A stretch of 64,000 nucleotides of DNA from Eledone cirrhosa (taxonomy: Eukaryota), in assembly GCA_964016885.1 (NCBI GenBank), contig OZ024743.1, positions 8,866,001 to 8,930,000 on the forward strand, given 5' to 3'. A program made the position numbers and the translations under genes. Within the stretch, counting starts at the first letter, position 1, and the number at the start of each line of letters is the position of its first letter. This document shows, in pieces, positions 40,265-62,689 of the stretch. The notes beneath the pieces are model-generated. The model saw nothing but the letters and a program-made list of their open reading frames with translations. It ran no database searches and had not been told where the DNA came from.

Positions 40265-40311
<47 letters not shown>

Positions 40312-43300: not shown

Positions 43301-46300
43301 TATTTTATCTTGTGGCAGTAAAGATGGTGTTAAGATACTTGAATTGATTGATAACTTCCAGAATCGCACGATTCAGTATAATGGGGATCCTTTATCCTCT
43401 AGTATATGGTGAGATGCCAGGAGATTAATGCCTTCATCTTGGTTGCATTGATCTCTCATGTCAACATCTGCGTACACGTTGAGTCATCAACTACTGATTG
43501 AACATCGACATAGTTATGACCAACTATTTTCAAAGTTATTGGCATAGTCAGGGTCAGAGACCCTGATGTCTCATCTCATAGCCATGTCTGGGAAATCCTT
43601 TAGGCTACGTTCTACAATTCAGTTGATGACATAATTGATCTATGTTGGAAACAAAACATAACCCTGCCAGACACCTGAGTGAATTTCTCTAGTTTTGGTA
43701 TCACTGTAGCTGGACAGCTGGGGGGGGTTAAGCTTCCTAAAAGTTGTTCCATATGGCAAGTGCAACACAATCACCTCTGTAGGACAAATGCTCCTCCCAT
43801 GCATCCTTGTCGCCACACTGGCGCTACTTAATAGGGTTGGGTGTGAAAGACTGTTCACCTAAAAATTCCAGAATGTGTTTGCTCTGAGATCTGGCAGCTA
43901 CTGGTAGCACTGGCCTCTGTATCTGCAAGTTTCTTTTGGAATGTCTCCATCTTCTATTAAATTGAAATCATGTCGGTGCTGTTGATATTTAACAGCGAAG
44001 AGTGCTGCTATAAATCACACTGTCTCAAAGTGTGTATGCTTGTACCTGGAGATCTGCAAAAATTGTATCTCCAATGAAACCCCAGAGGCAGCGTATTGGA
44101 GAAGTGCTTGAATAAGAGAGTAATAGAAAAGGGCTTAGTGGGGAGATAGAGATAAAGAGAGATGTTAGAGGATGATTATATATATATATATCATCATCAT
44201 CATCACCGTTTTAGTCCGTTCTTCCATGCTAGCATGGGTTAGACGGGTTTTCCTGTTGTGGGCAGTGTCTGGTTGGCTGACCATGCCTTGCTCATACAGG
44301 AACTGATTTTGGCTTGATTTCTACAGCTGGATGCCCTACCTAACACCAACCTCATTTACAGTGAGTGCTGGGTGCTTTTTTCCGTGGCGCCTACACGTCC
44401 ACTTTACAGTGTTGGCTGGGTGGTTTTTTGCCGTGGCATCTCCACGACCACTTTGCAGTGGGAGGGTGTGGTGGCATATTGTCTATATGCTTCAGCTTGA
44501 ACCCATGGGAGATCATGGTCGTGTGTCATCGCCTTTGAGAGGTGTAATTGGGTAAGGTCGGCTTTTATCACCTTATCCCAGGTCTTCTTGGGTCTCCCCA
44601 CTCCGCGGTTTCCATTGACTTCTAGTGCTCTGCACCTTTTTATGCAGCTGTCATCCTTCATACGCATCACATGTCCATACCAACGCAACCACCTCTCCTG
44701 CACACAGCATTTGATTCCTCTTATGCTCAGTCTCTCTCTCAATTCATTTATGCTTTGCCGTTCGCGTATATTACTATTACACATCCATCGGAGCATGCAG
44801 GCTTCGTTTCTTTCTAATTTACGTAAGTCTTCCACCTTCAGTGCCCAGGTCTCACTACCATGTAACATTGCTGTTCGTATACACGCATCATACAGTCTGC
44901 CTTTCATTTTGAGGGAAAAGCCTTTTGCAGCTAGCAGTGGCAGTAGTTCCCTGAACTTCTTCCATCCCGTTCTTACCCTAGTTATTGTACTTTCTGAACA
45001 CCCACCTCCGTTGCTAATTCGGTCAACTAGGTAGCAGAAGCTATCTACTGTTTCTACAGAGCTCTCCCAGAGATTGGTGGTACTTGTTTTCTGTGGCTGT
45101 TTGCTGCCCCAGCACAGCTGCTACATGTGAAGCCTACATTCTTAATTAAGCTTCCTGAGATCCCACTACATCTCTTGTGTACCCATTGTTTGCATTTGGG
45201 GCAGAGAATGGAGTTCGTACCTACACCTTTCCTACATACTGAGCAAGGCCATTTCCCTGAGGGTATCTGGGTTCTGTTTTCTACTCTACTTACAAGGACC
45301 TTATATATGGAGGCACATGGCTTAGTGGTTAGAGCATTGGCCTTGCAATCGAAAGGTTGTGAGTTCAATTCTCAGACCAGGTGATGTGTTGTTTCCTTGA
45401 GCAAGACACTTTATTTCACATTGCTCCAGTTTACTCAACTGTAGAAATGAGATGATAGGGACTGGGGTCCATATCATTCCACTGCAAAGTGGTCGTGGAG
45501 GTGTCACGGCAAAAAAAGCACCCAGCACTCACTGTAAATGAGGTTGTTGTTAGGAAGGGCATCCGGCTGTAGAAATCAAGCCAAAATCAGTTCCCATCCC
45601 ACCCTTGCAAGCAGGGAAAAAGCGGACATAAATGAAATGTTAAAATGATGATGATGATATATCAGTTCTTAATCAGAGCTACCGATCTCTCAGATGAGTT
45701 GGGGTTGGTATCTTGCAGAGTATATCAGGTGCGTTTCTGTGGCGCAGCACTAGAGAGGTTGTGCTCTTGACACAGCTAAAGAGTCCTCACACAACATTAT
45801 TTTTCTTGGTTTCTATGGTTTGATCTCCTTCCTAACCAATCTTTTTACAGGGTGTACTGGGTGTGTATTATTGTAGCACTAGCACTAAGGAGGTTGTTTA
45901 TTGGTCATGGACTTGACTAAATAGCCTTCTCAACCTTATGAGGGCTGGAATAGGATGTATCCTAAGGTAAGGGTCAATGGGGCGGAATGACAAGTATAAT
46001 ATCGTGGGTGTATTATAAGTACGGTGGTGGTGGGTGAGGGTAGAAGGGGTTAGAAAGTATGTTAAGTTTGTAAAATAGGTGTGATGGGATTTGGCGAGGT
46101 GATAAAATGGACTGGATGCTGATAAAGAACAGCTACTAATGATTTATGATTGATGCTTTAGGATTTAAACAGGATGGAAATGGTCCTATGTAGTGTTAGG
46201 GTAGGGTGTACAGTGATGGTGAGGATAATTATTATTGTGCATATATTGGAGGCACAGAGACTCATGTGGATGGGTCTGGTCACACTTTTATGCTGGTAGT

Positions 46301-49300
46301 CAGGTCTACTCCAGCACATTATGTCGTTAATCCCTACAGCCCTTTGTCATCTCCCATAAAGTTTAGTCTTCACTATGTCATCCCATGTCTTTCTAGGCAT
46401 GCCTCATCCATGAGTTCCATCCATTAAGATTTCTTTGCACTACTTTATACAGCTGTCATTTTTCATATCCATCACATGTCAATACCAGCGCAGTCTTCTC
46501 TCTTGAACACTCCATTCAATTCCATTTATCGCAAGTTTTTCTCTCAACTTACCTCTGTTCTGATGATCATGCATACTAACATTACACATCCACTGTTTAT
46601 TTCTCCTTTATGTCTGCTGCATACAAAGTCTATCTTGTGTTAATTTGCCTGTAACCCCACTATATCTCTTGTGCATCCATATATTACACTGTATACACCT
46701 TATGGAGTTTCTCCCCACTCCTTTTCAAGATATCAAATAAGGGCCATTTCCCTGGCAGTATCAGAGTTCTGTTTTTCTAAAATACTGAGTTTTTGCTAAG
46801 TTTACTATTAGATCTTTCGATTCTAGATGTTTCTCCCATGTTTGGAATTTCTCCTCTAACTCTTTCATGGATCCAGCTATAACAACTAGATCATTATCAT
46901 ACAGGAGCTATTATTATGTCTCTAATCAGTTGTGCTATAAACCTTTCAGTAACTTTCATAATCTGTTCTATCAACTTGATTTCTCTATATATGAATGACA
47001 CTATCCTCAGGCACATAAATATATGTATGTATGTGTGTATGCATATATATATCATCATCATCGTTTAACGTCTATCTTTCATGCTAGAATAGGGGAAGCA
47101 GAATACACTACCAGGAAGCTAGTAGAGAAGCTAGGTGACAAAGTATACTTAGCAAGGAGGGAAGCAGAAAATTAAAAAAATTAAGCATTTTTTACTATGT
47201 GAGGTATTCAGGATTGTGAGGCAGTGTGTCGGAAAATTGTGATGTTGTTGGGGAGAAGTGTGTCTGAGATGATAATGGTGCACTTGCCCTAACTGATGTT
47301 GAAAATAAGGTAGCATGGAAGAGCCATTATGAAAGATTACTGAATGAGGACAATGCATGGGATGAAGATTGTCTACCTCAAGTGGACTCAACAGAGGGAC
47401 CAGCTGTACAAGTCAGTAGCAGTGTAGTAAGGAAATTAAGGATATGAAGATGGGGGGAAAGCAGCTGGATGATTGGGGAAAGTTGCCTAGATGCTGAAAA
47501 CATATGGAATTGTGGGTCATATCTTAACCAATTAATGCAAAATGGTGTCATACCCAATGACTGGCATAGCATCATCATCATCATCATCATCATCATCAAC
47601 TGCTACAATGGCAAAGGAGATGCACTAGACAGAGAAAACTATAGAGGTATCAAATTGATAGACTAGGTCATGAAGATCATAGAAAGAGTTATAGTACAGC
47701 TGATTAGGGATCGAGTTAACCTACGTGAGATGTTGGGTTTTGTGCCAAGTAAAATTATCACTGATACATTCTTCCTTTTGAGGCAACTGCTGGAGAATTA
47801 CCTAGCTAAAGGTAACCCCCTCTACATGGCATTTGTTGATCTGGAGAAAGCTTTTATCAGAATCCCTTGTTCCATAATCTGGTGGGTTCTTAGAAAACTT
47901 GGGGTAGATGAGTGCATTGTGAAGGCAGTACAAGCCCTGTATAGAAGAGCAATCAGCAAGGTTAAGATTAACAATGAACAATGACTATAGTGAAGAATTT
48001 AGCATGCAAGCAGTAGTTCATCAGGACTCTGTTCCTGGCCCTTTCCTGTTTATTAACGTCCTGCAGGCTATAAAAGAAAAGTTTAAGACTGACTGGCCAT
48101 GGGAACTCATATACATAGAATATCTAACCTTCGTAGCTGAGTCTATGGCAGAATTAGAGAAGAAATTCCAAACCTGGAAGCATGGCCTAGAATCAAAAGG
48201 TCTTAAAATCAACTTGGCAAAGACTAAAGTCCTAGTAAGTAGAAAGGAAAACATTGCCCAGATCCCCTCAGGGAAATGGTCTTGCTTAGTGTGCAGGAAA
48301 GGAGTAGTAGGTAGAAATTCCATCCTATGTCTCAAATGCAAACTATGGATACACAGGAGGTGTAGTGGGATCTCAGGCAGGGAAGCAAAGAATGTGGGTT
48401 TTGTATGTGGTTGATGCACAGGAGCAGTAAGTAGCAAGAGCTCTCTGAAAACAAGCTCCTTTAAATGCCCTGATTTTGACCTGATGCACCAAATTGTAGA
48501 AAACTGATTTGATTGTTTGAATTCATATAGGAGAACTATGTCTAGCTAGTAAAGTAGTGACTTGTTGGGATTAGCTGGGATTAAGCTGAACCTTGAAAGA
48601 TATTCCAGCTTTGACCATCCTGTCCTTTTGTATATCATTCCCTACTAACGTTTGTGTGTTTTTTACTAACATTTATTGTCAGCATATCTATAATCAAAGA
48701 TGTTTGAGCCATAACAATTCCCTTGTTATTGATGTTATTTATTCCTTTGCTCATTTTCTTATTGAAGGAGACTTATATAATCAGACTTTACATCCTTGAC
48801 GATGTCTCTTTTTTCTTTTCCAATAGACTTAAAGTATTTAGGACTACAGTATCCAATGTGTCTTTCTTAACTATGAGACTGTAGGGTGTAATTCTAGTGA
48901 AGCTTGCCTACTATTTCTAATGTCAATTGACCACATTAACTGATATTCCAAGGGTTGACTTGCCACTTTATGACATCTACATTTTGATGTTAATTGCAGT
49001 GTGCTTTCTCTCTGTCTGTGTGTATGTGTGTTTTGGAGTGAACAGTAGTAAGCGATTTCATTGGTTGAAAAGTGAAGCAATATTGATGTGAACATACGTC
49101 TACTTTTGGTTCTGTACATTCACTGTACGAACAGAAGGTAGTTCAGACGGAAACAATTTTAGTTTATGATATATATCATCATTATTCTGTTATATTTTTT
49201 ATTCTTTTATTGGTTTCAGTTATTAGGCTGTGACCATATTGCAGCACTGTCTTGAAGGAGTTTAATAAATCATACTGACCCCAGTATTTATTTCTAAATT

Positions 49301-52300
49301 TGGTACTTATTTGATTGACCTCATTTTGTTGAGCAACTCAGTTACAGGACATATATATTGATGGACAGTCGTGCACATTATACCATAATCATCATCATCA
49401 CCATTTAATGTCCATTTTTCTACGCTAGCATGGGTTAGATGAGTTGTCCTGTTGTGAGCCAAGCCAGATCAGATGACCGTGTTTTGCTCATACTGAATTG
49501 ATTTTGGCTGGATGCCTTTCCTAATGTCAACCACATTCACAGAGTGGACTGGGTGCTTTTTGTGATGACGCCTACACGACCACTTTACATTGTGGACTGG
49601 GGGGCTGTGGTGGTGGAGGTGCATGTGGATTGGAGAGGTAGATCTAGGGTTGGGCACCTAGTGCTATTCGTACACATACATCATACAATCTGCCTTTCAT
49701 TTGGAGGGAAAAATCTTTTCTAGCTAGCAGTGGTAGTAACTTGTTACCTGTGAATGTTTGTTACTGCTCCTGTACAACAGCCACAAGTAAAACCTACATT
49801 CTACATTCTTAGCTAACCTACCTGAGATCCCACTACATCTCTTGTGTACCATAATTTACATTTGGGACAGAACCTTTTCCTACACACTGAGCAGGGCCAT
49901 TTCCCAGAAGTTATTAGGGCCTTGTTTTCCTTACTACTTACTAGAACTTTGGTCTTTGCCAAGTTGACTTTAAGACCATTTGATTCCAGGTTATACTTCT
50001 GTGTCAGGATAAGCTTCTGTAGTTTCTGTCTACCAAATTTCACTCACAACATGAAGCTGTAATAGGTGACACTTGCCCAAGGTACTATGCAATGGGACTG
50101 AACCTAAAACCACATGGTTGTGAAGCTAACTTCTGAACCACACAGCCATGCCTGTGATTATACTTACACTTTATCTTATTAAACAGAGATTTATTAAATT
50201 TACAATGTACTGTTAGGTTGGTAGGGATTTCACAGAGACTGTATGTCTTTGCTTGAGATTTTGAAGAAAGTTATTTGAAATATAAAAAGAAAAAAATTTA
50301 AATGATAAAGTTTGTCAATATATAACAAAGAAAACAAGAGAGAGTATTGTGTGAATGAAACATTGTCAGACAATGAAATTTTTATTGAAATTGAATCAGT
50401 AGTAGAGTTAGCAGTAGTAGTAGTATTAGTAGTAGTTATTGTAGCATTTAGTAGCATGTAAGTGGTATTAGAAATAATATGTGCAATAAAATGACATACA
50501 AAAGTCATAACATTGGCAATAAAATATTGAACAACCCTTATAGATTCATTCTTATAAATGTGGGTTACCTGCTGACCACCACTACTTCACTCACAACACT
50601 CAAAGGCCATTCACAGCTGTTGGTGGAGGGAAGATTGGTAAAAGTGAATGAGAGGAAAATGGAACTAAATGGAATAAAATCTTTCTATAGTATATTTGAA
50701 AAATATTTATTTCAAAGTTATTTATTTTAATTCTTCATCCTATTTTAATTGCATTTCTGTTATACTCTTAAGTATTTCTATCACACAATCACTTTGATAA
50801 TTAATCTCTATTTGTCAATGTAAATTTCTTCATCTTTTCTGAGTCTTCTTTGATGTTCTTTTCTTCAAGATATTTAAATTAAAATAATTTTTTATTCATA
50901 ATTCTGAAATCACTGTAAAACCTAGCCTTAATTTCACTACTAACTGCTTTGAAGTTTTAATAGTATGGGTTGTTAGTTCAGGAACCTATTTGATCCTGTT
51001 GTTGGACAGGCAACTGAATGAAAGAATGACTAAAGTAATTCAATTAATTTCTACAAATTGCTATGTTCTCAATAATTATAAAGTCCCATTCCTCTTTTGT
51101 ATTATTTTAGACTTAAGTTACTGAATCTGTAAGCTCCTTATCTATTTATTGTTTTGAATGTGTTTTTTATTTGCAAACTTTATTCCTAGTAAACTCTGAA
51201 ATTTTCAAAGTATTTTCTGATATTCTTAATTAATACCTATTAGTTTATAGACTTTGGTAAAGGTTACTATGTTTTCAAGTAGTCCTTTTATATAAATATC
51301 TCCACATTAGAGTTAAGACTGAATTTTCAAAGACATTATTTATTTGATCTCTTTTATCTAAAAGGAAATTTCATTAAAAGAACTCAGCTAAAATTTAGAA
51401 ATCCTTAAATATTACTATTTTAATTTTAAACTTTATTGATGCATTTTTTATAATTTTTTAAAATACAAATATGTAAGTATTGAGAGGAAATGGGTTAGAA
51501 GAGAGTATTAATAACCCGCATAATTGGACCCTTTACTTTTTGCCTTATTTAGATTTAATTTCTTAATCCACAAGATTCTACACTGAAGCATAACTCATTA
51601 AAATAATTTATAATGCTAATATTTCCATTAACGCAATATTATATTTTGCTTTAAGACTTGCTTTTTTCTAAAAATTTTCAAAGAATTTTAATTTATAAGA
51701 AATCTTATTAATTACCATTATTTTCAAATTATTGTTATCATTATCATTATTATTATTCCATTATATATGAGATAAAGTTCTCTTTGTGATGTCATTTGTT
51801 ATGAAAAGTTAGTGCTTTAATCACTTGAGGCATATTTCCTTTCAAACTTTACCCCCCACCTATTTTTGTTGATACCAACATCGGAATGAAATAATATAAA
51901 AAGGTCCACTATATGATCTATACAATGTTTAATTTAGGTGGGTGAGTGCATTATCTTAATGCATTAAATAAACCATGTCTAATTCTATCTGCAAACAAAA
52001 CTTTATAAAATTCTTTCACATGTAAAAAAATTAAATTTTCTGTTTTAGAAATTAAAAAAAAAAATCAACATTATTGAAATTAATTCAGAAAATAATAAGC
52101 TATAATAAAAGTAGCTGGATTAAAAGAAAATTGAAATAACCATAGCAGTGATTGTGAATGTGGTGTGATTGTTTCATATTTTCCAAGATCATTCCATTAG
52201 TGTTTTTGAAATTTTTTTATCACGTTTGTCTTATTGGCTTGGCCATGTACTATTTTCACTTTGAATATGGTCTTGTATGAAATGTCATGATCAGCAGCTA

Positions 52301-53560
52301 TCTGTATCATTTACAGCAGAATCAATAATAAACATAATTTGAACGGTGACAAACCATATTTCGCACTCATTCACAGATTCATACCTTTCTTTTTGTTATT
52401 TGTTCTTTCTCTCTTTGAAACAGAAATAATCACTGTGTGTATGTGTGTGAGTGTGTGTATGTCTACCTGTGTGTACACATATGTTTGCATGTGTGTTATT
52501 CTATTCTTAAAAAACATTTGATTCTTTCTAAAGAAAAAATGACATTTGAATATTGCACCTATTGCAACTGAAGCATTGACAAGACAAAATCCTTTTCAAA
52601 CAATTGCTCACTCTCTAAAACCTTTATTGTATTTTGCCTTCTATGAAGCCTTTCAAATACAGTTAATGCTTTTATTAAACAACATAATATAGCTTCCGAG
52701 TTGCACTTAAGACATTGCTGTAATATGAAAATGATATCAATGTAATATTGTAAGCATTAAGTTGACCCTTTTTTTCATGTCTATTGGAACTGAAGTATGA
52801 AAATGTATGTTTTGCAAGTAAATATTATTGTTACAACTGCAATGAAATTTCTTTTATTTCAATATTCATCAGTTAGATGTTAACTTTTATTACTTTATTT
52901 CTTTTAAAGACAGTTCTTGACAAAGAGTACATTTAAATAGACATTTATGAGAAAAAGTTTGATAAGTTTAGGGAGACATTTTATAAGGAAAACTGGTAGT
53001 AATATAACCTGCATATTGTTTAGCCTTTAAAACAAAGCAATATTGCAGTGGTAGGTATGTGCATTTAATTATTACTCCATACAGAGTGATAGATGTGTTC
53101 AACATATTGACAAAATTTAATTCACTACAACTAACATGTTTGAAAAGTTAACACCAAATTTCAGCAGATAGAAATTGGGTTCTTGTCAGTATTCAGTGGA
53201 CATGCCTTCTAGATAGACAACAGGGTTATCCTCAGAGGTATTCTTGTATATTACTTATTCTCCTCTTTTCAACACATTTTGCAAAGGACTAAATTATTGC
53301 TTATTTTATGTTATTTCTGCAAAGTTTAAATTGTGCGTTTTTTCCTTTGTGTTCACAGGAAAAGTAAAGAAAAGCCAATTAATGTTACACCCTTAACTTT
53401 TAATGTGCAATTTCATAGAGAGAAAAAAAGGAGACATTTTAGTTACATTTATGCACTATACTTAACAATTTTAATTTACTTAATCTTTCATCAGAAGTAT
53501 CTTTCAATCATTTCTGCTTATGAATCAAATACTTATTTGAGAGAGGAGCCCCACCCCATC

Positions 53561-53591
<31 letters not shown>

Positions 53592-56500
53592 GACAACAAC
53601 TTAATCTTATATATTTAACAATTGCAACAGAAAAATAAGATGTTTCTTATGAATTCTTTAGATGTTTGGTATTTACCTCTTGAAGGAAAGTTTTTTTTTC
53701 TTTTTGGCATATCTGAGATTCTTCTCTTGTGAGAGCACACCGACTGATACTGTTAAGAATAAGCCAAGTTTCTCTTTGAATTGAACATTAGTTATGTTAA
53801 ATTTTCCTTCCTCTCATCCATAAGACTATTGCACATTGGTGATTTACTGTTTAATTAAACTACTGTTTGTTAAGTTTACTTATTACATCTGCCTCTCTGT
53901 CAGACTGAAATTGCGCATAATGTACATGAATTGTTTTTTTTTATTTTTGTTCCTTAAAAAAAAAACAACAACATAAATGGTAACAACTGATTGTTTGAAT
54001 CAATTGTTATTACACAGTTTATGATCCACTATACACAGCTACCACAGTACAAAAGAGAAACACTGAAAAAAAAGAAGTATTTTTTAAAATTTATTTTTTA
54101 TTTTTGACTCGATTGTCAAATTCTAAATCTCCTGCTTTCACTTGAGGATGTAGAAAAAGGCAGATTTAACTTAATTTCCAATATTTGTCTTTCTGATTTA
54201 AAGATAGCTTGACCTTAATAATAATAATAATGATAATATTAAATAATAGTTTGTTACACCATGCACTTTTTGAATTTTTATTTTTCATATTTTAAATATA
54301 ATTTTTGTGAACTATATCAGAAGTTGGAATGTTCATCTTCTGTTTTGCTGGAGAAGGATAATAGAAAGGAAATGTCCTTTGTGAAGCTAACTCTCACTGG
54401 AATTATGTTATGATTTTCTAAGTTTGTAGTTTATGACACAGCCATATTGAGCCCTTCATTAATCTACTGTGCACTGGTTGTATTCATTGTGTGCTCTGTA
54501 AACTGTCCTATTCAGAGAATATTTCTATCTAGTAGGAAGAATGACATGAAAATATGAAGTCTTAGTTGCATTTAAGTTTTCTTATATCACTACCAAATTA
54601 GAACTTTTTAGTTTCCTTTCAGCAAATATTTATTTTAAAAAATATTTTTGACAAGTAAGCTCCTCCTTATTGCTGTTAAGTTCCAATGACTAAGATTATC
54701 AAAATGTAACACATCTGCCTGATTATAGTTAATCCTCAAAGTGAAATTGGATTGTGTGGCAGGTCAACAAGATACAAGTGAGCCAATTCTTTGACATATT
54801 ATCACACTATGCAATTGGTTTTGCACTTTAGAATAAAAATAATAAAACCAAAACAACAGTGACAAGAAAAATTACAGTCTGAGCATTGAAATAGTAAAAA
54901 GTATAAATGAATTGTCTATTAGTGTTTATTGCTTTCACTGGAAAAGTTCCAAGTTATGTACAAATAATCAAATTAATAAAAAGGCATGTAAAAACATTTA
55001 ACTACTGATGTCAAAATTGTTCAAGATTTCGTGTAAAACATTTTTATTTTGAAATTATAAATATTTTTCATGTTATAATATATATAGAATTAGTTTTATT
55101 TTTGATGTTGGGATAAAGATAAAAAGTTTAATGCTTTGGGTAGATTTAAAAACATTGGGATTAAAAATGGGGGGAATAGTTTAAAATACTTTATTTTTTT
55201 TTTTTAAATAAAATTTGGATACCGTGTAGAAATTTATTAATGATGTTATCTCATTTAAAAAGTCTTCTATTTTTGTCAATGAAATTGATATAATAAGTAG
55301 ATCTTAAATTAGTAAAATTAAATTTACAATCTAGTAAAAACACGTGCTATTGTTGCAGGTGCTTTGGAATTTACATATATTTATGTATAGTTGTATATTT
55401 ATACATAGACATATGAATCGAGAGGATGGATGTTCTATCTACAAGTGCATACAATTATATCATATACATTAAGACAATGTCTATAATAATCTGAAACCAA
55501 CGGTATAGATTAAGAGCAGGCATTTATGGTCAATATTATTATTTCTATTGACTTTTACTCCTCTTTATCAGATGTTTGTATTTCAGGTTTATAAAGCAAG
55601 CATATTTGACTAGTGACATCAGCAGACAACATCATTGAAACTAGATATTCCGTGTAAATTTTGATTCGTAGTTCTTCATCTACTGAGCTATGAAAATTAT
55701 TGCTTCTCGAATGAGTACTGTTATTGCTTGTCGAATGGGAACTATAATAAAAAGATATCCCTGAAGAGCAGAATTTATTTTTAAAATTTTTTCTTTTAAG
55801 TTAAGAGCGAACTTTTCAGTTTGGAACAAAGCGACATTCTTGTTCATTATAATAAGCACAGCCATGTTAACTTAACATAGGTGCTTTGAGAAAGTTGAAC
55901 ACATTTTTTCAGTCAATATATATCGATGTTCATAACAACTTTTATAATCGATGTTAATTACAATTTCTCATCATTAGTTTAAATTTTAACATTTTCTTCA
56001 CCTTATTTTATCTTTTTTTTTTGTATATATTTCTCTGTAAAATAGTCACAGAGTTCACCAGTGGAAGAAGAAATTTTGAACACTCTTTTTATTGCTCAGT
56101 GAATATTTAGTGGCAGTCTCATATTTTATATCAGCATGAAAATATATTGCTATAACATTTGTATATTTTTGCTGTACACATATGTATCCAGAGAGGTCAT
56201 AATCTGTAAAATAAGACATCAAAGCAAAGATATATAAGGCCAGCTAAGGCTTATTAAAGATTTTACAAAGACAATTTTCAGCAGAGAATATCCAATAAAT
56301 TGTAGATTTTTAAAAGACAATACTTTTTTTTAAATACTTTTTATATAGAATTAATTTTTAAAAATGTACAGTGTTAATTTTCATAAAACATTTTTATATT
56401 GCTTTGAATTTAAACTTTTATTTTAATATTATTTATATCTTAGGACTTTTTAAAAATTGGTTTCTCCTCCTTTCACTTTAGATTATTTCATATTCTGTAT

Positions 56501-59500
56501 ATTTGGGAAACTTTTATTTCTTCTTTGTTTTAAGAAGTTATTTAAAAAAGAAATATAGTGTATTTTCATTCTAGTGTTTACTTGTTCCTCTCTATTTATT
56601 TAATATGTCAATAACTTAATTTATCCAAATCTTATATTAAATTATTTTGCTTCTATATTAACATTTTTCTTGGTCTATTTTTACCCCCTCTTATTATTAT
56701 TATATTATTTTCTTTGCAAGTTACAATTGAATTTCTTCAATTTCACTCATCAGTTTCCTTTTTCCAAATCTTTCAGTTCAATGCCTACATTCTTTATTTA
56801 TCAAGTTCTTATTTTAGGAATTTCTCAGCATTTCAACTTTTAGACATTTCAATTGTCAACTTAAACAGGGAGGGATTTTATTTCATCATTTTTCACTGAT
56901 TGCCTTTTTACAGTAATTTATCATGTTTAATAGATAATTTAATTTCAATTTATATATTTTAAAACTATTGTTTTTCTTCTGTTGATTAAAAAGAGATCAA
57001 TGAGTCAGTGGTCATATTGATTTAAAAAAACTCTGATCATTTAATATTTAGTTTGAGTTTGAATGTTCAATCATTAGTGCTTATCATATTTTCAATTATG
57101 GAAGACTCTTTTTTATTAAATCTCTTTTAAAGATTGCTACATAAAGCTAGTTTTGCTTATTAATTAGAATACATTAAGATTATATTATTGTGTCCAGAAG
57201 AGAAACCATTGTGGTCTTAGATATAATTATTGCTGTAATTTCAACTTATCTCACCTCTTATCATGTAATATACTTGGACAGGGGGAAAAATTGTCACTCT
57301 TTTTCTGTAAATGATCCATTACAAAATTCTTTTGTGACTTAATGAGTCAAATACAACATTTTATCATTTCTCTCATCTCGAGGAAGTAAACGAAAACAAA
57401 TAAAAAGAAACCCCCAAACAAATAAAAAAACAATTCACAAATGGAAAATAAATGGTTTTTGTTATTGTTGTTAACAATTTAGATTTCATCTACATTTGAC
57501 CACATTAAAGTGTCTAAGAATATAACAAAGACATTCATTAAAATCTCCCATTCATTATTATTATGAACTCAATGGAAATATTTTGAGTTTGATTGATTCT
57601 GGTTCTTTGACATGTTAATGAAATTTTTAAATCAAAGTCATTTGAAGCTAGCTAATCATTAATAATAAGGGCTAGCTTCTTATTTAAAATATTTGATAAT
57701 TTCTCCCCTTCCCCACTCCACTTACGTAAATTGAGCAAGCTATGATTTAAAAAAAAAGGGTGAAAAAGATAGTATTATATGGTCACCATGTTTAACGATA
57801 AACAGAATGAGTGTTATTCCAACCGTAACAAGGATAATAGCAATAACAATGGGTTAGTGTTGTCTAAGGTCATGCATGGAAGTTAGCAAAGAGCAGGAGG
57901 AATGAAAATTGCAGTTACCTATGTCAAATTATTATTAGTATTATTATTGATCTTATTTTGTTGTTGTTATTATTAGTATTATTATTATTATAGGCTGGTG
58001 CAGGGTATTTTAATGTGTTCTAGAAATTTTTATAGAAAATGATTAAGAAAATAGTCTTTGATGAATTATTAATTTTTTTTTTTTTTAAATGTTTCATTTT
58101 CCCAATTGAGAAATAAGTTGAACTTCAACTTATTAATCCTGTGTATATAAGTAGGTACTTTAGCTGTTAGTGTGTGTACCTAACAATGAAACATGTCATC
58201 TTAGTAACATTAGCTAATAGTAAAACACTTAAGGAGAGTCACCTCATCTGTTAACTATCTCAGCGGTTAGTGTACCGAGTACATCAGTTGTTAGTAAACA
58301 ATTAATCATATAAAAGTTTTCAGTTGAAAATTAAATTAGAAGAAACTTCAAATTATTTTTTTTCATATATTTTCGTGACACACAGAATGTGTATATGTTC
58401 TCATATAATTTTAAACAAAAAAGCAATTAGTATATATCTTGGGATGTGGCTATTGATGTGGACTGGTGATAATTTTTTTTAAAAAGAAAATTTCTCTTTT
58501 GATCTACACTACTGGTCTTACAAATGAGCTGGTGTCTTACTGTCTTACACAGGAAAGTACCAGCTAATATAATAATAATAATAATAATAATAATTAGTTG
58601 TGGACATGTTAGACTTTGGAATTAGGAAAAGTGATTAATTGTCATTTGAAATTTGATTATAACATCTTGTCTGTCTCTTCAGTTAGCAATAGAGATGGCC
58701 AAGTTAGCCAGTAGATATTGTTTCCTTGAAGGAGGAGACAAAGATGAAAAATAGACAAGGAAAGCAGTGGGGGAAAATACCCTGAAAAAAAAATAAATGT
58801 CAGTTTATAATTCATATTCTGTGACTATTTTCTTTTTTTTTTAGTGTTCAGTCATTACTATTAGTAGGTTGGAGTTATTGTGATTTTCATGTATTCTCTT
58901 GCTCAAGGAGAATTAATGTTTTGGGTTTTACTTTTTCTTGTGCTTCTGCTTCCTCATATTGCAGCCTCAATACTTTGACAGAATCACCATGTAAATTATT
59001 TTTATATTCTATTATCGTTGTTTTCCCTCAACTTTCACTTTTTTTTTCGATTTGATTTTGTTTGAATTGTTTTTGTTTTTTTACCCTTTCTTTCTTTTTT
59101 TTTTTTAAATAATTACCAGGATTGTTTTCAGATTCTTTGCAGCAAGGGTTAATTGGTATTGTCAACATGACAAGAGAGAGTTTGAAAGAGTGAGTGAGGG
59201 GAGAAAAAAAGAAAAGAGATGTGGTTGTATTTTGATAAAGTACCTTTTAAATCTTTTTTTTTTTTTTTTTTTTTTTTTTTGCACTTTGCTTTGTATTACT
59301 GGACAGTTGAACCCAGGTGGGCTTAATATACTCTGCTGCATTACCATAAGTTGTCTTCAGTCTGCCTAGAAAGAAAGGATATAAAAAATATGATCAAAAC
59401 TATATTGATTAAGATTAATTGCATTGGTTGTATATATTGTGAAATTGGAATTTTATAGGAAAGATTTCATTATTGTCTCAGATTTTCTCTTCCTTAATTA

Positions 59501-62396
59501 AATAGTATAGGAATTGTTACAATGTTTAAAGTATACTGTTGGATGTGTGTGCATGCAGCATAGCCAGATGGTTAAGAAGTTCACTTTGAAATTGTTAGGT
59601 TTTGTTTTTGATCCCACTGCATGGCATCTTGTCAAGTCAACCAAAACTTTTTGAGTGCAAATGGGTAGATGGAGACTGTTGGGAAACCTATCGGATGGAC
59701 TGTACCTGTGAAAGGGCCAGCTTTGTCGCACACTTCATCACACTGAATTTCCCTCTATTGAACAAACAACTAGAATACATTGTTGAAACTGATTGAGGTT
59801 CATTCCATTGAATGTGCTTAATGAAGAGTGCTATGCAGTTTGTTTATCTTGGATGAACATATATCACTGTAGTAATTAAGAGAGGGAATGGGTGTTTGTG
59901 GATTAGTGGTTGTAGTGTGTTGGTGAGTGAATATTTCCCAGTCAATAGTGAACAAAGTGTTTTGAACTTACGACTAAAGATGCAATTCATATTCTTTCAG
60001 GATTTCCTTAATATGAAAATATACTAAAGCTTATTGAATAAATATCTTTATAATTAAATAATAATTAGATATTTGTTTCTTGCCTTTTTAGCTTACCTTG
60101 TCTTTATCTCTTTTTTAGAAAAGGCGTGGCAGGAACAGCATGAGGCAACTGAGGATCACTGCATGCATGGTAGGCTGTGTCGGAACCGTGGAGCTTGTAC
60201 AGGTTTTGTTCATCTCTTCATCAGCTAAAACATATAACAACATTTTATGGTTTAATTTGCTTAGAACATTTATTAATGAATAAAACAGTTTTTCTTATGC
60301 TTAATGAGCAATCAGAGATATGAGGGGACATAGATAAGGTACACATACAATCTGAATTAAGATATCATTGTCTGAAGGAATTAATTTATCGCTGAGTTTT
60401 TACTATTTTTAAAGATTTTATTTAAAGATATTTTGTAATCTACAATGATTACGTAAGGACCTTAGATTTAATTGTATGACTACATGTGCATGTATGTGGA
60501 GGGAGAGAGCTGATATTGTTTCATAGTCTATGAAGTTTATGGCTACTCCAAATATTTCAATAATTATTAGTTTGGATATCTGATTAAAAGAATTTCTATT
60601 GGATATATCTTTCTAACAAATTATATACGCACTTAGGAATTTTAAGCAAAAATAATTTCATTAACATAAGTTGAAGTTGTGTAGTAGATGTAGTACTATT
60701 AATAAGTAGTAGTAGTAGTAGTAGTAGTAATAATGATGATAATGATGCTAATTTTATGAATATTACCAAATGAAAAACTAAATTTTTCCACCTTTTCTTC
60801 AGTTGGAAGTCGGTGTTATTTTATGCATCTCCTATGTGGGAGTATTATAACCCTAATGTCAGTTTTGGAAGCAGTTATTGCTCGTCACTCATATCAAATG
60901 CACCTCAGGTAGGTAGCAAAATTACTTCTATAAACTATCAACTATTATCTATTTTTATTCAATATTTATTTCTGATGTTGAATAATTTAGCCCCCCCCTC
61001 CCCATTTTTGACATTTTATGCAGTAATTTTTATTTGCCATGAGTTTTATTTTTTTTTTCATTTTTTTCTCTTTCTTTCAGATTTGATTGTGAAAGAAGGT
61101 TGATTGAAATAATGAAAGTCTGTTCAGAATGTAATGTTGTATGACTGAATTGTTGATATCATTACTCGTTGAATGAGAATATCATATTATAAATGAAAAT
61201 AGTTAATAATATAATGATGTTAGTCTAACTAGTAACTGCTTAGATAATGCTGCAGAGATCATATACAAGCTACTTTCTGATTGTCTTTAGTTCAGATGTT
61301 ATCTGAAATATATTTTAAAATAATTTTTCATCCTCATCATTCTTATAGCTGTTGTCATCATTTTAACAAAACTGGTTTGGATGAGATTGGTATATAATGC
61401 AATGTCCCCAAAGTTTAAGTTTAATGCTACAAATTATAGTTTACTTATCCATTCACAAAACTTGACAGTTTAAAATTGACTATATTTATATATTTTCTCT
61501 TTTAAAGTAAAGCCGAGTCTTCCATTCGAGTTGTACGGATTCAACTTAACAATGGCGAGCGTGTTGTTGGTATCCGTTACCCAGAACGTCTCATTGGTGA
61601 GGTTGAGAAAGTTCTTAGAGAACATCAGCTTGTCAATCAGTTGCAGATGATGAATAATAATGTAAGTATATATTGCTATATAAGTTGCCTTATTTTCTAA
61701 TGAATTTTATTTTTCTGTTGTCTTACTGTATATTTTTGTTTTTGTGCTCGATTTTCTGTTGAATTCTATTTTTGTTTTATATTCCAGTCAACGATGCAGT
61801 CCAATGACACCGTTATACCAAATTTTAATTCTTCATCAAACAAGTTGATCATTGAAGCTGCCTCTCCAGTGATTCCCAAATACGTTAACAAGGCATTCAC
61901 TCCACCATTTAACATGAACTCATATTTAAAGTCTGGTGCACGTAGTCACACGATGCCATCTTCAATAGGCAGAACTACTTGCAAAGTGAGACAGATGGAA
62001 CAAAATCATCTGGTCAATGATTCCAATAATCAGCTTATGCCATATAATAGTGCACCAGCACAACATTCCCTATCCATTGCTAGCAGTACTACAAGTAATA
62101 ATTTCAATAAAGGGGTGTCTTGTAGCGCTATTTGCAGCAGCAGTGAGAGTGGTATTGCTAGTAATGCTTACAAAGTAAATATGTCCCGAAAACGGCGCAT
62201 GAACAACTATTACAGTGATAATTGCATTGATATGAATCGCAATTGCAAGCAACAAACTCTTGTGTCTCTCTTTACTAAAAATCGGCTGGAGGCTCCACTA
62301 GTAACTTGCCAGAAGTGTCCAGTATGTAACATGAATTTTGAGTTGGGCACTAGTAATGATCAGATCAATTCTCATGTTGATAACTGTCTTTTGTAA
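1..62396 (+). CDS. SBNO: Strawberry notch (SBNO/Sno) family SF2 helicase-like protein, divergent paralogue; spliced, 31 exons in window, 5' end upstream of window
   Basis: Exons join in frame via GT-AG introns to give [35 protein letters not shown] (Walker A)..FDECHKAKN (DExH)..[119 protein letters not shown], all hallmark Sno motifs. About 1174 codons, stop TAA at 62394-62396. Confidence 0.95.
521..628 (+). CDS. SBNO: SBNO-like exon: [21 protein letters not shown]
   Basis: tttgtag acceptor, gtaagt donor, 108 nt. Confidence 0.92.
1212..1427. mobile_element. piggyBac-like MITE family A (~215 bp)
   Basis: TTAA-CCCTTTAGCATTT...AAATGCTAAAGGA-TTAA; homologous copies at 3291, 12659, 35959. Confidence 0.8.
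1485..1571 (+). CDS. SBNO: SBNO-like exon: [16 protein letters not shown] (Walker A)
   Basis: tgtag acceptor, gtgagt donor, 87 nt. Confidence 0.95.
2297..2843 (-). mobile_element. CR1/L2-group LINE, 5'-truncated 3' fragment
   Basis: Minus frame [38 protein letters not shown] is a CR1-type ORF2 C-terminus; (ATT)n tail. Confidence 0.85.
3291..3493. mobile_element. piggyBac-like MITE family A, inserted at a TTAA inside a SINE
   Basis: TIRs plus TTAA duplication; flanks rejoin to gagaattacattaagggtaca as in the uninterrupted SINE near 10440. Confidence 0.8.
3671..3762 (+). CDS. SBNO: SBNO-like exon: [17 protein letters not shown]
   Basis: ccag acceptor, gtaaga donor. Confidence 0.93.
5035..5290 (-). 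mobile_element. Degenerate RTE LINE 3' fragment
   Basis: Minus-strand remnants of WRWIG..AMDW..GKRRP C-terminal motif. Confidence 0.5.
5836..5904 (+). CDS. SBNO: SBNO-like exon: [15 protein letters not shown]..
   Basis: ccag acceptor, gtaaat donor, phase 2-2. Confidence 0.92.
6110..6192 (+). CDS. SBNO: SBNO-like exon: [17 protein letters not shown]
   Basis: gcag acceptor, gtaagt donor. Confidence 0.92.
7297..7412 (+). CDS. SBNO: SBNO-like exon: ..[24 protein letters not shown] (Walker B/DExH)
   Basis: ttgcag acceptor, gtaggt donor. Confidence 0.93.
7703..7758. repeat. (TA)n(TG)n microsatellite
   Basis: Directly visible; other (TA)n tracts near 18625, 18996, 37325, 37810, 39889, 40268, 62631. 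Confidence 0.95.
8046..8165 (+). mobile_element. tRNA-derived CORE-like SINE (5' part)
   Basis: A/B boxes (tgactgagtgg..ggttcgattcc) followed by tccttgagcaagacactttatttcacattgctcc, same family as 21847 and 45309. Confidence 0.75.
8190..8640 (-). mobile_element. Degenerate RTE LINE 3' fragment
   Basis: Minus frame [20 protein letters not shown], an RTE ORF C-terminal motif. Confidence 0.7.
8664..8760. repeat. 20-bp AT-rich minisatellite (~5 copies)
   Basis: tatatatta(t/c)tgatatatg repeated. Confidence 0.85.
9704..9788. mobile_element. Tiny Tc1/mariner-like MITE
   Basis: Perfect 14-bp inverted ends TACCATATATACTC / GAGTATATATGGTA (including TA). Confidence 0.6.
10059..10111 (+). CDS. SBNO: SBNO-like exon: [18 protein letters not shown]
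   Basis: tgtag acceptor, gtaaat donor. Confidence 0.9.
10213..10560 (+). mobile_element. tRNA-derived SINE
   Basis: tggttaaggagtttgcttcacaatc..ggttcaaacccact..ttggcaagtg; homologous to 130, 3055, 40935 and 59545. Confidence 0.7.
11100..11163 (+). CDS. SBNO: SBNO-like exon: [21 protein letters not shown] (motif III)
   Basis: ttcag acceptor, gtaaga donor. Confidence 0.93.
11953..12043 (+). CDS. SBNO: SBNO-like exon: [15 protein letters not shown]..
   Basis: tttag acceptor, gtaaat donor. Confidence 0.93.
12659..12873. mobile_element. piggyBac-like MITE family A
   Basis: TTAACCCTGTAG...GCTAAAGGGTTAA; internal sequence homologous to 1212-1427. Confidence 0.8.
12991..13070 (+). CDS. SBNO: SBNO-like exon: [23 protein letters not shown]
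   Basis: acag acceptor, gtaaat donor. Confidence 0.93.
13239..13447. mobile_element. Foldback/MITE-like element with ~60-bp imperfect inverted arms
   Basis: agagacgaacacggatatatataactatgtgttcaaataacaaggga.. pairs with ..tcccttgtgatttgaacacatttagttatatatctgaattcgtctct. Confidence 0.65.
14330..14397 (+). CDS. SBNO: SBNO-like exon: [17 protein letters not shown]
   Basis: gacag acceptor, gtatat donor. Confidence 0.9.
14639..16698 (+). mobile_element. RTE-clade LINE, 5'-truncated and inactivated (RT + PHD-like finger + C-terminus + 3'UTR VNTR)
   Basis: [38 protein letters not shown] (one Asp of YADD deleted); frameshifts near 15470 and 15610; [14 protein letters not shown]; (TGA)n tail. Confidence 0.93.
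16096..16545 (+). repeat. 49-bp tandem repeat, ~9 copies, within the RTE 3'UTR
   Basis: ccacggcaaaaaagcccccagcccacactgtaaagtggtcgtggaggtg starting at 16115, 16164, 16213, 16262, 16311, 16360, 16409, 16458, 16507. Confidence 0.95.
16883..17079. repeat. 98-bp direct tandem duplication
   Basis: tatcaccactttacagagtg..cttctttt at 16883 and 16981, nearly identical. Confidence 0.9.
17899..18009 (+). CDS. SBNO: SBNO-like exon: [20 protein letters not shown]
   Basis: ttcag acceptor, gtatgt donor. Confidence 0.93.
18883..18976 (+). CDS. SBNO: SBNO-like exon: [17 protein letters not shown]
   Basis: ttcag acceptor, gtaaga donor. Confidence 0.93.
20062..21312 (-). mobile_element. RTE-clade LINE, 5'-truncated
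   Basis: Minus ORFs 20864-21238 (C4HC3 finger, FRYLG) and 20459-20857 (LRWYGHV..GRPRKSW); (CAT)n tail at 20062. Confidence 0.92.
21847..22179 (+). mobile_element. Full-length tRNA/CORE-like SINE with RTE-derived 3' tail
   Basis: tRNA-like head, CORE-like tccttgagcaagacac..cagctgtagaaatgag, one 49-bp unit plus RTE 3'UTR, (TGA)n; nearly identical to 45309-45658. Confidence 0.85.
22358..22409. repeat. 18-bp tandem repeat x3
   Basis: atgattcacataacttac. Confidence 0.85.
22714..22833 (+). CDS. SBNO: SBNO-like exon: [20 protein letters not shown]
   Basis: tttag acceptor, gtaagc donor, 120 nt. Confidence 0.9.
23284..23372 (+). CDS. SBNO: SBNO-like exon: [17 protein letters not shown]
   Basis: tacag acceptor, gtatag donor. 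Confidence 0.88.
23391..23542. mobile_element. Tc1/mariner (Tc2/pogo-like) MITE
   Basis: TA-CCATATTTCCCAGTGTCGAAGACAC vs reverse complement TA-CTGTATTTCCCGATGCCGAAGACGC. Confidence 0.7.
24050..24870. mobile_element. Degenerate RTE-like LINE fragments in opposite orientations
   Basis: Plus 24653+: [13 protein letters not shown] (RT); minus 24050-24420 resembles a decayed ORF C-terminus. Confidence 0.55.
25094..25265 (+). CDS. SBNO: SBNO-like exon: [25 protein letters not shown]
   Basis: tacag acceptor, gtgatt donor. Confidence 0.93.
26932..27058. repeat. Imperfect ~25-bp inverted repeat (MITE-like)
   Basis: acatcatgaaagagtcattttaacca / tgactaaaatgactcttctatgatgt. Confidence 0.55.
27139..27199 (+). 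CDS. SBNO: SBNO-like exon: [20 protein letters not shown]
   Basis: ttcag acceptor, gtgaga donor. Confidence 0.93.
28609..28738 (+). CDS. SBNO: SBNO-like exon: [28 protein letters not shown] (helicase motifs V/VI)
   Basis: tgtag acceptor, gtgagt donor. Confidence 0.95.
29285..29531. mobile_element. piggyBac-like MITE family B
   Basis: TTAACCTTTT...CAAAAGGGTTAA; related copies near 1940-2177, 4400-4647, 9657, 19630, 35377, 35802. Confidence 0.65.
29601..29686 (+). CDS. SBNO: SBNO-like exon: [23 protein letters not shown]
   Basis: ttcag acceptor, gtaaat donor. Confidence 0.94.
29800..30130 (+). mobile_element. Degenerate RTE LINE 3' fragment
   Basis: [26 protein letters not shown] homologous to the 15618 ORF. 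Confidence 0.65.
30722..30837 (+). CDS. SBNO: SBNO-like exon: [17 protein letters not shown]..
   Basis: gatag acceptor, gtgagt donor. Confidence 0.94.
30959..31039 (+). CDS. SBNO: SBNO-like exon: SELVPGI..FHKILQ
   Basis: tgcag acceptor, gtttgt donor, 81 nt. Confidence 0.85.
31737..31871 (+). CDS. SBNO: SBNO-like exon: [24 protein letters not shown]
   Basis: ccag acceptor, gtaatt donor. Confidence 0.93.
32822..32883 (+). CDS. SBNO: SBNO-like exon: IFNYF..AKREGK
   Basis: ccag acceptor, gtaagt donor. Confidence 0.92.
33200..33540 (+). mobile_element. RTE 3'UTR fragment with ~4 diverged 49-bp units
   Basis: aaaagcacccagcccacactgtaaagtggtcg repeats, then gttaggaagggcatccag..cccatgctagcgtggaa..(TGA)n. 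Confidence 0.8.
33766..33867 (+). CDS. SBNO: SBNO-like exon: YNEGLLDI..
   Basis: ttcag acceptor, gtaagt donor. Confidence 0.92.
35802..36245. mobile_element. piggyBac-like MITE B with MITE A (35959-36174, reversed) nested at TTAA
   Basis: Outer TTAACCCTTTTG..AAAAGGGTTAA; inner TTAACCATTTAGCATTT..AAATGCTAAAGGGTTAA. Confidence 0.75.
36406..36588 (+). CDS. SBNO: SBNO-like exon: [21 protein letters not shown]
   Basis: tttag acceptor, gtttgt donor. Confidence 0.92.
39098..39504 (+). mobile_element. Head-to-tail dimer of a ~200-bp tRNA-derived SINE (Meta-domain-like core)
   Basis: Two copies of ggattggcagtatcggtagag..gttcaaatccc..gcctttcatcc..ggtcgataaaataaagtacc..tagaaacaattatt; a third copy at 39998-40181. 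Confidence 0.8.
40185..40267. repeat. Perfect 39-bp inverted repeat with 5-nt loop
   Basis: 40185-40223 is the exact reverse complement of 40229-40267; loop ataaa. Confidence 0.95.
40935..41100 (+). mobile_element. tRNA-derived SINE
   Basis: ggcatggttgtgtggtcaagg..ttcagttccact..ccttgggcaaatgtcttctactat. Confidence 0.7.
41585..41667 (+). CDS. SBNO: SBNO-like exon: [12 protein letters not shown]
   Basis: tcag acceptor, gtaaat donor; completes conserved RPNTG. Confidence 0.92.
43100..44000 (-). mobile_element. Highly decayed RTE-like RT remnant
   Basis: Minus frame [14 protein letters not shown] resembles the RT motif GVRQGCVLSP. Confidence 0.45.
44191..45301 (-). mobile_element. RTE-clade LINE, 5'-truncated; close relative of 14639-16698
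   Basis: ORF 44404-44907 differs from ORF 15618-16001 at 12 of 127 aa; two 49-bp units; (CAT)n tail. Confidence 0.93.
45309..45658 (+). mobile_element. Full-length tRNA/CORE-like SINE with RTE tail
   Basis: Nearly identical to 21847-22179. Confidence 0.85.
46290..46990 (-). mobile_element. Degenerate, internally deleted RTE LINE
   Basis: Minus remnants of [29 protein letters not shown] and LRWY. Confidence 0.65.
47090..48470 (+). mobile_element. Older RTE LINE copy (RT region, many stops and frameshifts)
   Basis: [22 protein letters not shown]; FVDLEKAF; PHD-like CLVC..CLKC..HRRC. Confidence 0.88.
49385..49990 (-). mobile_element. Deleted RTE LINE fragment
   Basis: [26 protein letters not shown] plus RTE 3'UTR and (CAT)n. 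Confidence 0.75.
49991..50155 (-). mobile_element. tRNA-derived SINE (left boundary of the repeat-free block)
   Basis: Reverse complement of caggcatggctgtgtggttcagaag..ccttgggcaagtgtc. Confidence 0.7.
50190..50195 (-). terminator. Candidate polyadenylation signal (AATAAA) of the antisense transcript
   Basis: Plus-strand tttatt at the edge of the repeat-free block, about 35 bp from the flanking SINE. Confidence 0.4.
53294..57234 (-). promoter_or_regulatory. Cluster of 9 miR-137 seed-match sites (AGCAATA/AGCAATAA)
   Basis: Plus-strand TTATTGCT at 53294, 54667, 54926, 55697, 55721, 56089, 57227 and TATTGCT at 56145, 56397. Confidence 0.6.
59545..59795 (+). mobile_element. tRNA-derived SINE (right boundary of the repeat-free block)
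   Basis: tggttaagaagttcactttg..gatcccactgcatggcatcttg; homologous to 10213-10560. Confidence 0.7.
60119..60202 (+). CDS. SBNO: SBNO-like exon: [19 protein letters not shown]
   Basis: tttag acceptor, gttttg donor; Sno C-terminal Cys/His cluster; phase matches across the 18.4-kb intron. Confidence 0.9.
60803..60908 (+). CDS. SBNO: SBNO-like exon: VGSRCY..LLCGSII..
   Basis: ttcag acceptor, gtaggt donor. Confidence 0.9.
61508..61661 (+). CDS. SBNO: SBNO-like exon: ..[20 protein letters not shown]..
   Basis: aag acceptor, gtaagt donor; matches the Sno C-terminal 'RL..G.RIVG' motif. Confidence 0.9.
61788..62396 (+). CDS. SBNO: SBNO-like last coding exon: low-complexity tail, NLS, PIP-like box, UBZ-type C2HC zinc finger
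   Basis: ttccag acceptor, 609-nt open frame ending [26 protein letters not shown]-stop. Confidence 0.88.
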   Translation, partial: STMQSNDTVIPNFNSSSNKLIIEAASPVIPKYVNKAFTPPFNMNSYLKSGARSHTMPSSIGRTTCKVRQMEQNHLVNDSNNQLMPYNSAPAQHSLSIASSTTSNNFNKGVSCSAICSSSESGIASNAYKVNMSRKRRMNNYYSDNCIDMNRNCKQQTLVSLFTKNRLEAPLVTCQKCPVCNMNFELGTSNDQINSHVDNCLL

Positions 62397-62622
62397 CAGG
62401 CAACCACAACTAACTCATTTTTTTTAAGTTATTCAAAAATTGAGAGAAAAAACAATGAAAAAAAGAAGGAATGGCACATTTTTGTTGATTTTAGTATTGA
62501 AGGATACATACGTAAATAAACATAACACTTATATAACATTAAATACTAATTTAAATTAAAGTCTTTGCTGTTGTTTCTTTATTTTTGTATTTTGTTGCTT
62601 TTCTTCACCTTGATACTGCTGA

Positions 62623-62689
<67 letters not shown>

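Follow-up and report, generated by a model that had tools for sequence, protein, structure and literature searches.

The window analysed here, a 64,000-nucleotide stretch of the Eledone cirrhosa genome (contig OZ024743.1), is filled by a plus-strand homologue of the strawberry notch gene, SBNO. The largest intron of this gene holds a real, repeat-free, AT-rich block of more than 9 kb that is probably constrained non-coding DNA. As to its nature, a minus-strand terminal exon can reasonably be put first among the guesses. From its sequence, the block is predicted, with a confidence that stops just short of even, to be the antisense terminal exon or 3′ untranslated region (3′UTR) of a transcript coming from the right. 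The narrower form of this prediction, in which a single exon runs exactly from 59365 to 50190, looks doubtful.

SBNO was rebuilt as a single open frame of 30 exons (521-62396). The rebuilt protein is identical to Octopus sinensis SBNO1 at 1111 of 1157 aligned residues, one window exon is 97% identical to O. sinensis strawberry notch homolog 1, and the O. sinensis SBNO1 protein carries the Pfam domains AAA_34, Helicase_C_4 and SBNO. The 30-exon model bears out the initial annotation in placing the block in the largest SBNO intron, with the last four SBNO exons to its right. The intron and its surroundings are laid out as follows, with SINE and LINE standing for short and long interspersed nuclear elements.

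41668..60118, plus strand: largest SBNO intron, 18,451 bp long (median SBNO intron, 988 bp)
41668..50152, no strand: left part of the largest intron, transposon-rich, with LINE fragments, SINEs and satellite
50013..50152, minus strand: SINE bounding the block on the left, found by self-BLAST; its head gives the GU-rich run downstream of AATAAA
50153..59545, no strand: repeat-free AT-rich non-coding block, delimited by the repeat search and the GC change point
59546..59759, plus strand: old SINE at the right edge of the block, 62-64% identical to other copies in the window
60119-60202, 60803-60908, 61508-61661 and 61788-62396, plus strand: last four SBNO coding exons (span 60119..62396)

The second largest of the 29 SBNO introns measures only 4,996 bp. 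Transposons do not account for the difference in size, as the largest intron has 14,388 bp of non-repeat DNA (median, 809 bp; log-scale z of 3.6), five times as much as the next intron. Within it, the transposon-free stretch first noticed between the flanking SINEs was confirmed. A BLAST of the window against itself left 50153-59567 (9,415 bp) without a repeat copy, the next longest gaps being 4,545 and 3,639 bp, and none of 68 LINE-peptide matches fell inside the block. When the repeat copies of the window were used in a sensitive search, they returned 20 short matches on the block and 22 on a reversed-block control. Repeats were defined here solely from copies within the 64-kb window (families with two copies there) rather than from a genome-wide library. 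Under uniform insertion, a maximum gap of this length has a probability of 0.00003, 0.001, 0.006 or 0.03 when repeats are merged at 50, 150, 300 or 600 bp, respectively. Fitting four distributions to the remaining 39 gaps yields 0.014 (log-normal, the best fit), 0.0008 and, twice, 0.00001, such that all eight models place the probability at or below 0.03. On these window-derived repeats, the block is also longer than the 5 kb at which the definition of vertebrate transposon-free regions begins.

Base composition changes along with repeat content. The block has 27% GC, against 32% in the unique DNA of other introns (P = 5e-6, 500-bp pieces), and the GC change point at 50148-50188 gives it a sharp left edge. 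Windows of 300 bp with more than 36% GC make up 83% of the left part of the intron and 0% of the block, where none exceeds 34%. The same observations bear on a rival account, in which the AT-rich DNA of the block is merely an old, neutral part of the intron that escaped insertion by chance, since transposons cluster and thereby leave long gaps. Heavy clustering raises the probability to 0.03 per window, and a genome scan covers many windows. The GC content of the block equals that of short repeat-free SBNO introns (26-27%), composition tests other than GC do not separate the block from intron, and the repeats were defined from one window alone. Nonetheless, the low gap probability in every model, the abrupt loss of GC-rich windows and the fivefold excess of non-repeat DNA all argue against chance escape, which we consider unlikely.

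The block has no recognisable coding content. A coding-exon scan with splice and codon models trained on SBNO (49900-64000, both strands) recovered the last four SBNO exons and found no comparable exon beyond them; any exon in the block would thus be untranslated. Pfam gave nothing above cut-off in 16 standard-code frames, none of 10 block frames was present in the protein collection, and no homologue was found for an 81-codon minus-strand frame near 55343-55949. A scan of JGI metagenomes produced two short matches, of 16 and 22 residues, neither of them usable. No Rfam match in the window reached gathering score, a search of 57500-59600 gave a best E of 0.69, and ARAGORN reported no tRNA. Octopus-specific microRNAs (miRNAs) may be missing from Rfam.

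Alternatively, the block could be a large repeat that escaped recognition, or an insertion (a retrocopied UTR, mitochondrial DNA or a segmental duplicate) so recent that it has not yet collected transposons. Its distinct and uniform composition and sharp left edge would fit such an origin, and the repeat search was limited to window copies. However, the edges of the block show no direct or inverted repeat of 10 bp or more, no poly(A) tail follows the AATAAA at 50190, and no transposase or reverse transcriptase (RT) frame lies in the block. The lack of both an edge repeat of that length and a poly(A) tail makes a mobile element or retrocopy unlikely. A mitochondrial insert was considered and rejected: 0 of 11 long frames read with genetic code table 5 matched a mitochondrial protein family, and mitochondrial tRNA-like calls in the block number 3 against a mean of 2.05 in 20 shuffles. 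Overall, an unrecognised insertion is very improbable.

Selection against insertion is the best explanation of the block, and a likely one, because the intron is outsized, its extra DNA is not transposon-derived, the repeat-free stretch ends abruptly and it codes for nothing. The initial annotation had also invoked selection, acting on an antisense exon. The gap, the intron size and the lack of coding sequence fit the constraint in that proposal; its antisense direction gains no support from strand asymmetry, which follows SBNO.

Constraint might instead act on regulatory DNA. On this account the block would be rich in enhancers rather than an exon, and its acceptor and poly(A) motifs would have arisen by chance. 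The gap and the outsized intron would then be explained without a transcript, and the edge motifs are each weak. Most of the sequence in vertebrate transposon-free regions lies outside exons, which take up 14% of the bases (PMC2241635, available text), and the available text of PMC13652810 describes a conserved element in a squid intron that acted as regulatory sequence on deletion. The vertebrate regions, however, show enrichment at genes for transcription factors and as a rule stretch to the 5′ side of the gene (PMC2241635), whereas the block lies near a 3′ end. CpG is also low in the block (observed/expected 0.20), with one small cluster at 55343-55949 that gathers 11 of the 34 block CpGs in 0.6 kb, beside an AT-rich hairpin and the 81-codon frame. 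Enhancer clusters, moreover, need not exclude every insertion across 9 kb. Regulatory DNA is thus possible, though on the unlikely side. Given selection, an exclusion that runs unbroken over 9 kb is, in our judgement, likely to be better accounted for by an untranslated exon than by scattered enhancers.

In the antisense interpretation, a minus-strand RNA would enter from the right, crossing the last four SBNO exons, and the block would form its long untranslated last exon or exons. The RNA would be spliced in at 59365, at 58781 or at both, and would end at one or several of 33 AATAAA signals, the last near 50190. Selection on this RNA would remove insertions from the block. Insertions would be tolerated only past its 3′ end, and transposons would therefore pile up to the left of 50153. 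What the sequence shows is an outsized intron, a repeat gap with a sharp left edge, an absence of coding sequence, and candidate motifs for splicing and polyadenylation; from these we infer first selection and then an RNA with its strand, splice site and 3′ end. Should such an RNA exist, the 3′UTR of a protein-coding neighbour would be somewhat the likelier form, and a long non-coding RNA (lncRNA) somewhat the less likely one.

For such an exon, the minus strand is favoured, and quite likely to be the right one, for three reasons. None of the seven SBNO protein cluster members ends before the block. Opposite-strand overlaps are common and same-strand overlaps are selected against, as stated in the accessible part of PMC2330155. 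Finally, the best acceptors sit at the right end of the block. The confidence in an antisense exon stated at the outset is the product of the three judgements on selection, exon and strand. The candidate features on the minus strand are the following.

59365..59390, minus strand: acceptor of the initial annotation (11.0 bits), followed by AD or QTEDNLW before a stop, or by 38 codons with no homologue found
59111..59119, minus strand: candidate donor after 59117 (8.2 bits)
58781..58806, minus strand: candidate alternative or second acceptor (15.8 bits, CTGAC; exon start 58781)
58663..58746, both strands fold: imperfect hairpin of pre-miRNA-like length, starting 35 nt past the 58781 acceptor (z near -2.8 and -2.7)
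58000..59365, minus strand: cluster of A-runs, including A27 at 59254-59280
50190..50195, minus strand: AATAAA with upstream UGUA, candidate distal poly(A) signal in an unremarkable context, last of 33 in the block

The acceptor at 59365 had been called strong. It is present, and two of the reading frames after it stop as described, but it is weaker than claimed. It ranks 7th among 3,601 minus-strand AGs in the window and is outscored inside the block by 58781, 53952 and 54062, so that four of the window's seven best lie within the block, two of them (59365 and 58781) at its right end. The 58781 acceptor, with its CTGAC branch-point motif, is the window's best on the minus strand. Real SBNO acceptors score from -0.9 to 16.1 bits (leave-one-out), a range that takes in both 59365 and 58781, and decoys score alike on both strands. 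The chance of an 11-bit acceptor within 200-400 bp of an edge is 2-16%. The candidate donor after 59117 could pair with the 58781 acceptor to give a 335-nt intron, and on these motifs a two-exon end is as plausible as a single exon.

At the left edge, the AATAAA at 50195-50190 and its upstream UGUA exist as reported, but neither is distinctive: the block contains 33 minus-strand AATAAA, 8 of them with an upstream UGUA. The GU-rich sequence downstream is also real, but it belongs in part to the neighbouring SINE, whose head supplies the clearest run (50147-50138). The one real merit of this signal is its position as the last before the sharp compositional edge, within ~40 bp. The exclusion of repeats, the size of the intron and the missing coding sequence all speak for a constrained non-coding element, whereas sequence alone does not support the exact exon boundaries: the poly(A) signal is unremarkable and a stronger rival acceptor lies 584 bp inside 59365.

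Several further observations weigh against an antisense exon. Its 9 kb would be ~25 times the median octopus 3′UTR of 350-380 nt (PMC9699675, in the text available). The partner gene postulated on the minus strand is not apparent as a coding exon on that strand anywhere in 49900-64000. Two of six readings that follow the acceptors were searched in large databases, the 2- and 7-residue ends being too short to search. The 38-codon frame after 59365 drew two candidates in a protein-database search, none at E≤10, and the single match to the 33-codon frame after 58781, a repetitive unnamed protein, was rejected. A frame at 55558-55758 drew 11 candidates, none of them a relative. The right boundary is not sharp, as beyond it GC stays low and repeats stay scarce up to the end of the window (59770-61790 has 27% GC). 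In downstream U/G content, the AATAAA at 50195 is tied 25th-26th of 33. Minus- and plus-strand AATAAA stand at 33:16 in the block and 69:35 in SBNO introns, with no depletion. Strong acceptors also occur on the plus strand (14.7 bits at 58845 and 12.9 at 52910) and are thus cheap in such homopolymer-rich DNA. Lastly, with an AT skew of -0.075, the block is T-rich on the plus strand like SBNO introns, in whose unique DNA the skew is -0.056, and its asymmetry projected on that of SBNO introns has a slope of 0.64 (95% confidence interval 0.02-1.28).

By halves, that slope is 0.27 on the left and 1.17 on the right, and the GC skew of 0.034 in the block does not differ significantly from the 0.061 of introns (P = 0.17). 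Strand asymmetry neither supports nor excludes the minus strand. It would be compatible with a minus-strand RNA because an RNA made only in the soma would presumably leave no mutational trace.

These strand signals would also fit an SBNO-derived RNA on the plus strand, with the block serving as a long alternative last exon via a left-edge acceptor (e.g. 51111) or as a slowly spliced half-intron. Both the strand asymmetry and the T-runs go with the plus strand, which has half as many AATAAA as the minus strand (16 against 33) and an acceptor of 10.0 bits at 51111. In addition, an SBNO intron-read-through isoform is annotated just downstream in three octopus species. Yet 0 of 7 SBNO protein cluster members end after exon 41585-41667, the AATAAA strand ratio is equal in ordinary SBNO introns, and the best left-edge plus-strand acceptor lies ~950 bp inside the block. 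A plus-strand origin is therefore improbable.

For the antisense exon, two features near its predicted start were considered. Minus-strand A-runs of at least 8 are concentrated in the last 15% of the block, which holds 7 of 12 (P = 0.0006, with the boundary picked post hoc). Lying in the 1.4 kb after the acceptors, these seven runs may be taken to resemble the start of a 3′UTR, the sole in-window comparison being the A-rich first 80 bases of SBNO. The hairpin at 58663-58746 is matched by another at 55360-55425, which likewise has a z near -3 when folded alone. A fold scan of 412 windows returned 8 below z -2.5 and a mean z of ~0 on both strands. Unremarkable among these windows and lacking an Rfam match, the hairpin at 58663-58746 was not counted as miRNA evidence.

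Sequencing runs provide a lead to an RNA, although none of the 24 that share words with 50200-60100 is listed as RNA. One run from the same organism and study, made from another sample (X24; 88 million letters, kind unrecorded), contains 0.96 of the words of 50200-60100. Three runs of ~1.4 billion letters each contain 0.99 and may come from the assembly's own sample; 20 further runs from three other organisms, with shares of 0.09-0.11, were not used as evidence. The size of X24 suggests a transcriptome, although it carries no strand information and is a lead only. Because 92.6% of the query words lie wholly left of 59365, X24 likely has sequence to the right of the acceptor as well (binomial P < 0.0001), an excess for which P becomes 0.01-0.07 if the SINE words stem from other copies. 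X24 modestly raises the odds of an RNA and lowers those of a clean boundary at 59365; unspliced SBNO RNA would look alike.

The read-through isoform raises the question of an effect on SBNO itself. Isoform X2 (1217-1221 residues) is known from O. sinensis, O. vulgaris and O. bimaculoides and reads into the intron past exon 60119-60202. At 60203-60228 on the plus strand, the window has eight codons and a stop that match its ending. Isoform X2 is without ~290 C-terminal residues, including a UBZ-like zinc finger. In the window, the SBNO C-terminus at 62310-62393 (plus strand) contains a Cys/His motif that matches UBZ_FAAP20 weakly (E of 0.002, below cut-off) and is kept in three named Octopus proteins though the last exon is only ~80% identical. 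By analogy with nested genes, interference from an antisense partner could account for isoform X2. The donor of exon 60119-60202 is nonetheless the weakest in SBNO (3.6 bits), which suffices for the retention and requires no partner. In the most elaborate scenario, the neighbour would send a neural 3′UTR of at least 9 kb back through the last four SBNO exons into the largest intron, forming an interleaved tail-to-tail pair in which antisense transcription or double-stranded RNA shifts SBNO to isoform X2; we rate this as decidedly improbable.

Other features of SBNO and of the repeats around it were observed in passing. A candidate 18-nt SBNO microexon lies at 61081-61098 (plus strand), between exons 60803-60908 and 61508-61661. 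Its acceptor is very strong (15.9 bits) and its donor moderate (5.2), and it would add six codons in frame without a stop. It is not in the O. sinensis reference protein and may be a neural microexon or a decoy. A plausible SBNO poly(A) site occupies 63802-63830 (plus strand), with AATAAA at 63807, UGUA upstream and U/G-rich sequence downstream; a near-perfect hairpin at ~63738-63777 stands just ahead of this AATAAA. LINE fragments with RT (RVT_1, E of 2e-28) and PHD-like domains lie at 14612-16749, 20462-21370, 44404-45384 and 47640-48436. The copy at 44.4-45.3 kb is broken by a SINE-like stretch, and a 49-bp satellite adjoins LINE ends at 16100-16540 and 44355-44460. A 200-bp element is duplicated head-to-tail at 39098-39506 and 39998-40273 with a third copy nearby, its last copy being followed by a perfect inverted repeat at ~40187-40267. 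SINEs dominate octopus repeats, according to the available portion of PMC9068888.

At best guess, the block works like a convergent overlapping 3′ end, which is a known kind of arrangement. In human, mouse and fly, no class of gene overlap is commoner than the convergent antiparallel one, according to the accessible part of PMC2330155. Such 3′-3′ pairs, including nested or embedded antisense exons, share with the prediction an untranslated opposite-strand 3′ end in an intron near the gene's 3′ end. Unlike them, the predicted overlap would be interleaved, with four SBNO exons in the intron of a putative partner, and would extend over at least 12 kb. Octopus genes use canonical poly(A) signals, with ~4,800 having tandem sites and neural genes having the longest 3′UTRs (PMC9699675, available text). 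Octopus 3′ ends needed long-read extension, and cleavage sites were assigned up to 60 kb downstream (PMC9712504, available text). Like those long neural 3′UTRs, the block is AT-rich and non-coding, has many AATAAA and was likely missed by annotation; it differs in its far greater length, and in that its link to a coding gene and its expression in neural tissue are putative. The block also resembles vertebrate transposon-free regions in running beyond 5 kb with no recognisable transposon in a transposon-rich genome (PMC2241635, in part). It differs from them in falling below the 10-kb class, in being defined by window-only repeats and in lying at a 3′ end rather than around the promoter of a developmental regulator. 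Finally, transcriptional interference by nested genes, as covered in the accessible part of PMC3192792, likewise involves intron retention next to an intronic element, as in SBNO X2. Here, by contrast, the retained intron comes after the block in SBNO, and no other donor in the gene is as weak as its own.

A literature search for strawberry notch in octopus returned no paper on the SBNO-intron locus. The right-hand neighbour of SBNO is not listed in the searched supplements of PMC9712504, PMC9023564, PMC9068888 (one small file) and PMC9476566 (12 of 22 files). Overlapping convergent genes, long neural 3′UTRs and transposon-free regions are all known, and the block would therefore be a modest surprise unless the overlap controls SBNO isoforms. 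If the RNA is real, the block would be a multi-kilobase octopus 3′ end absent from annotation and overlooked by standard gene models, and 3′-biased single-cell counts could credit its reads to the wrong gene. Transposon gaps would then offer a way to locate hidden untranslated exons in the SINE-rich genomes of cephalopods.

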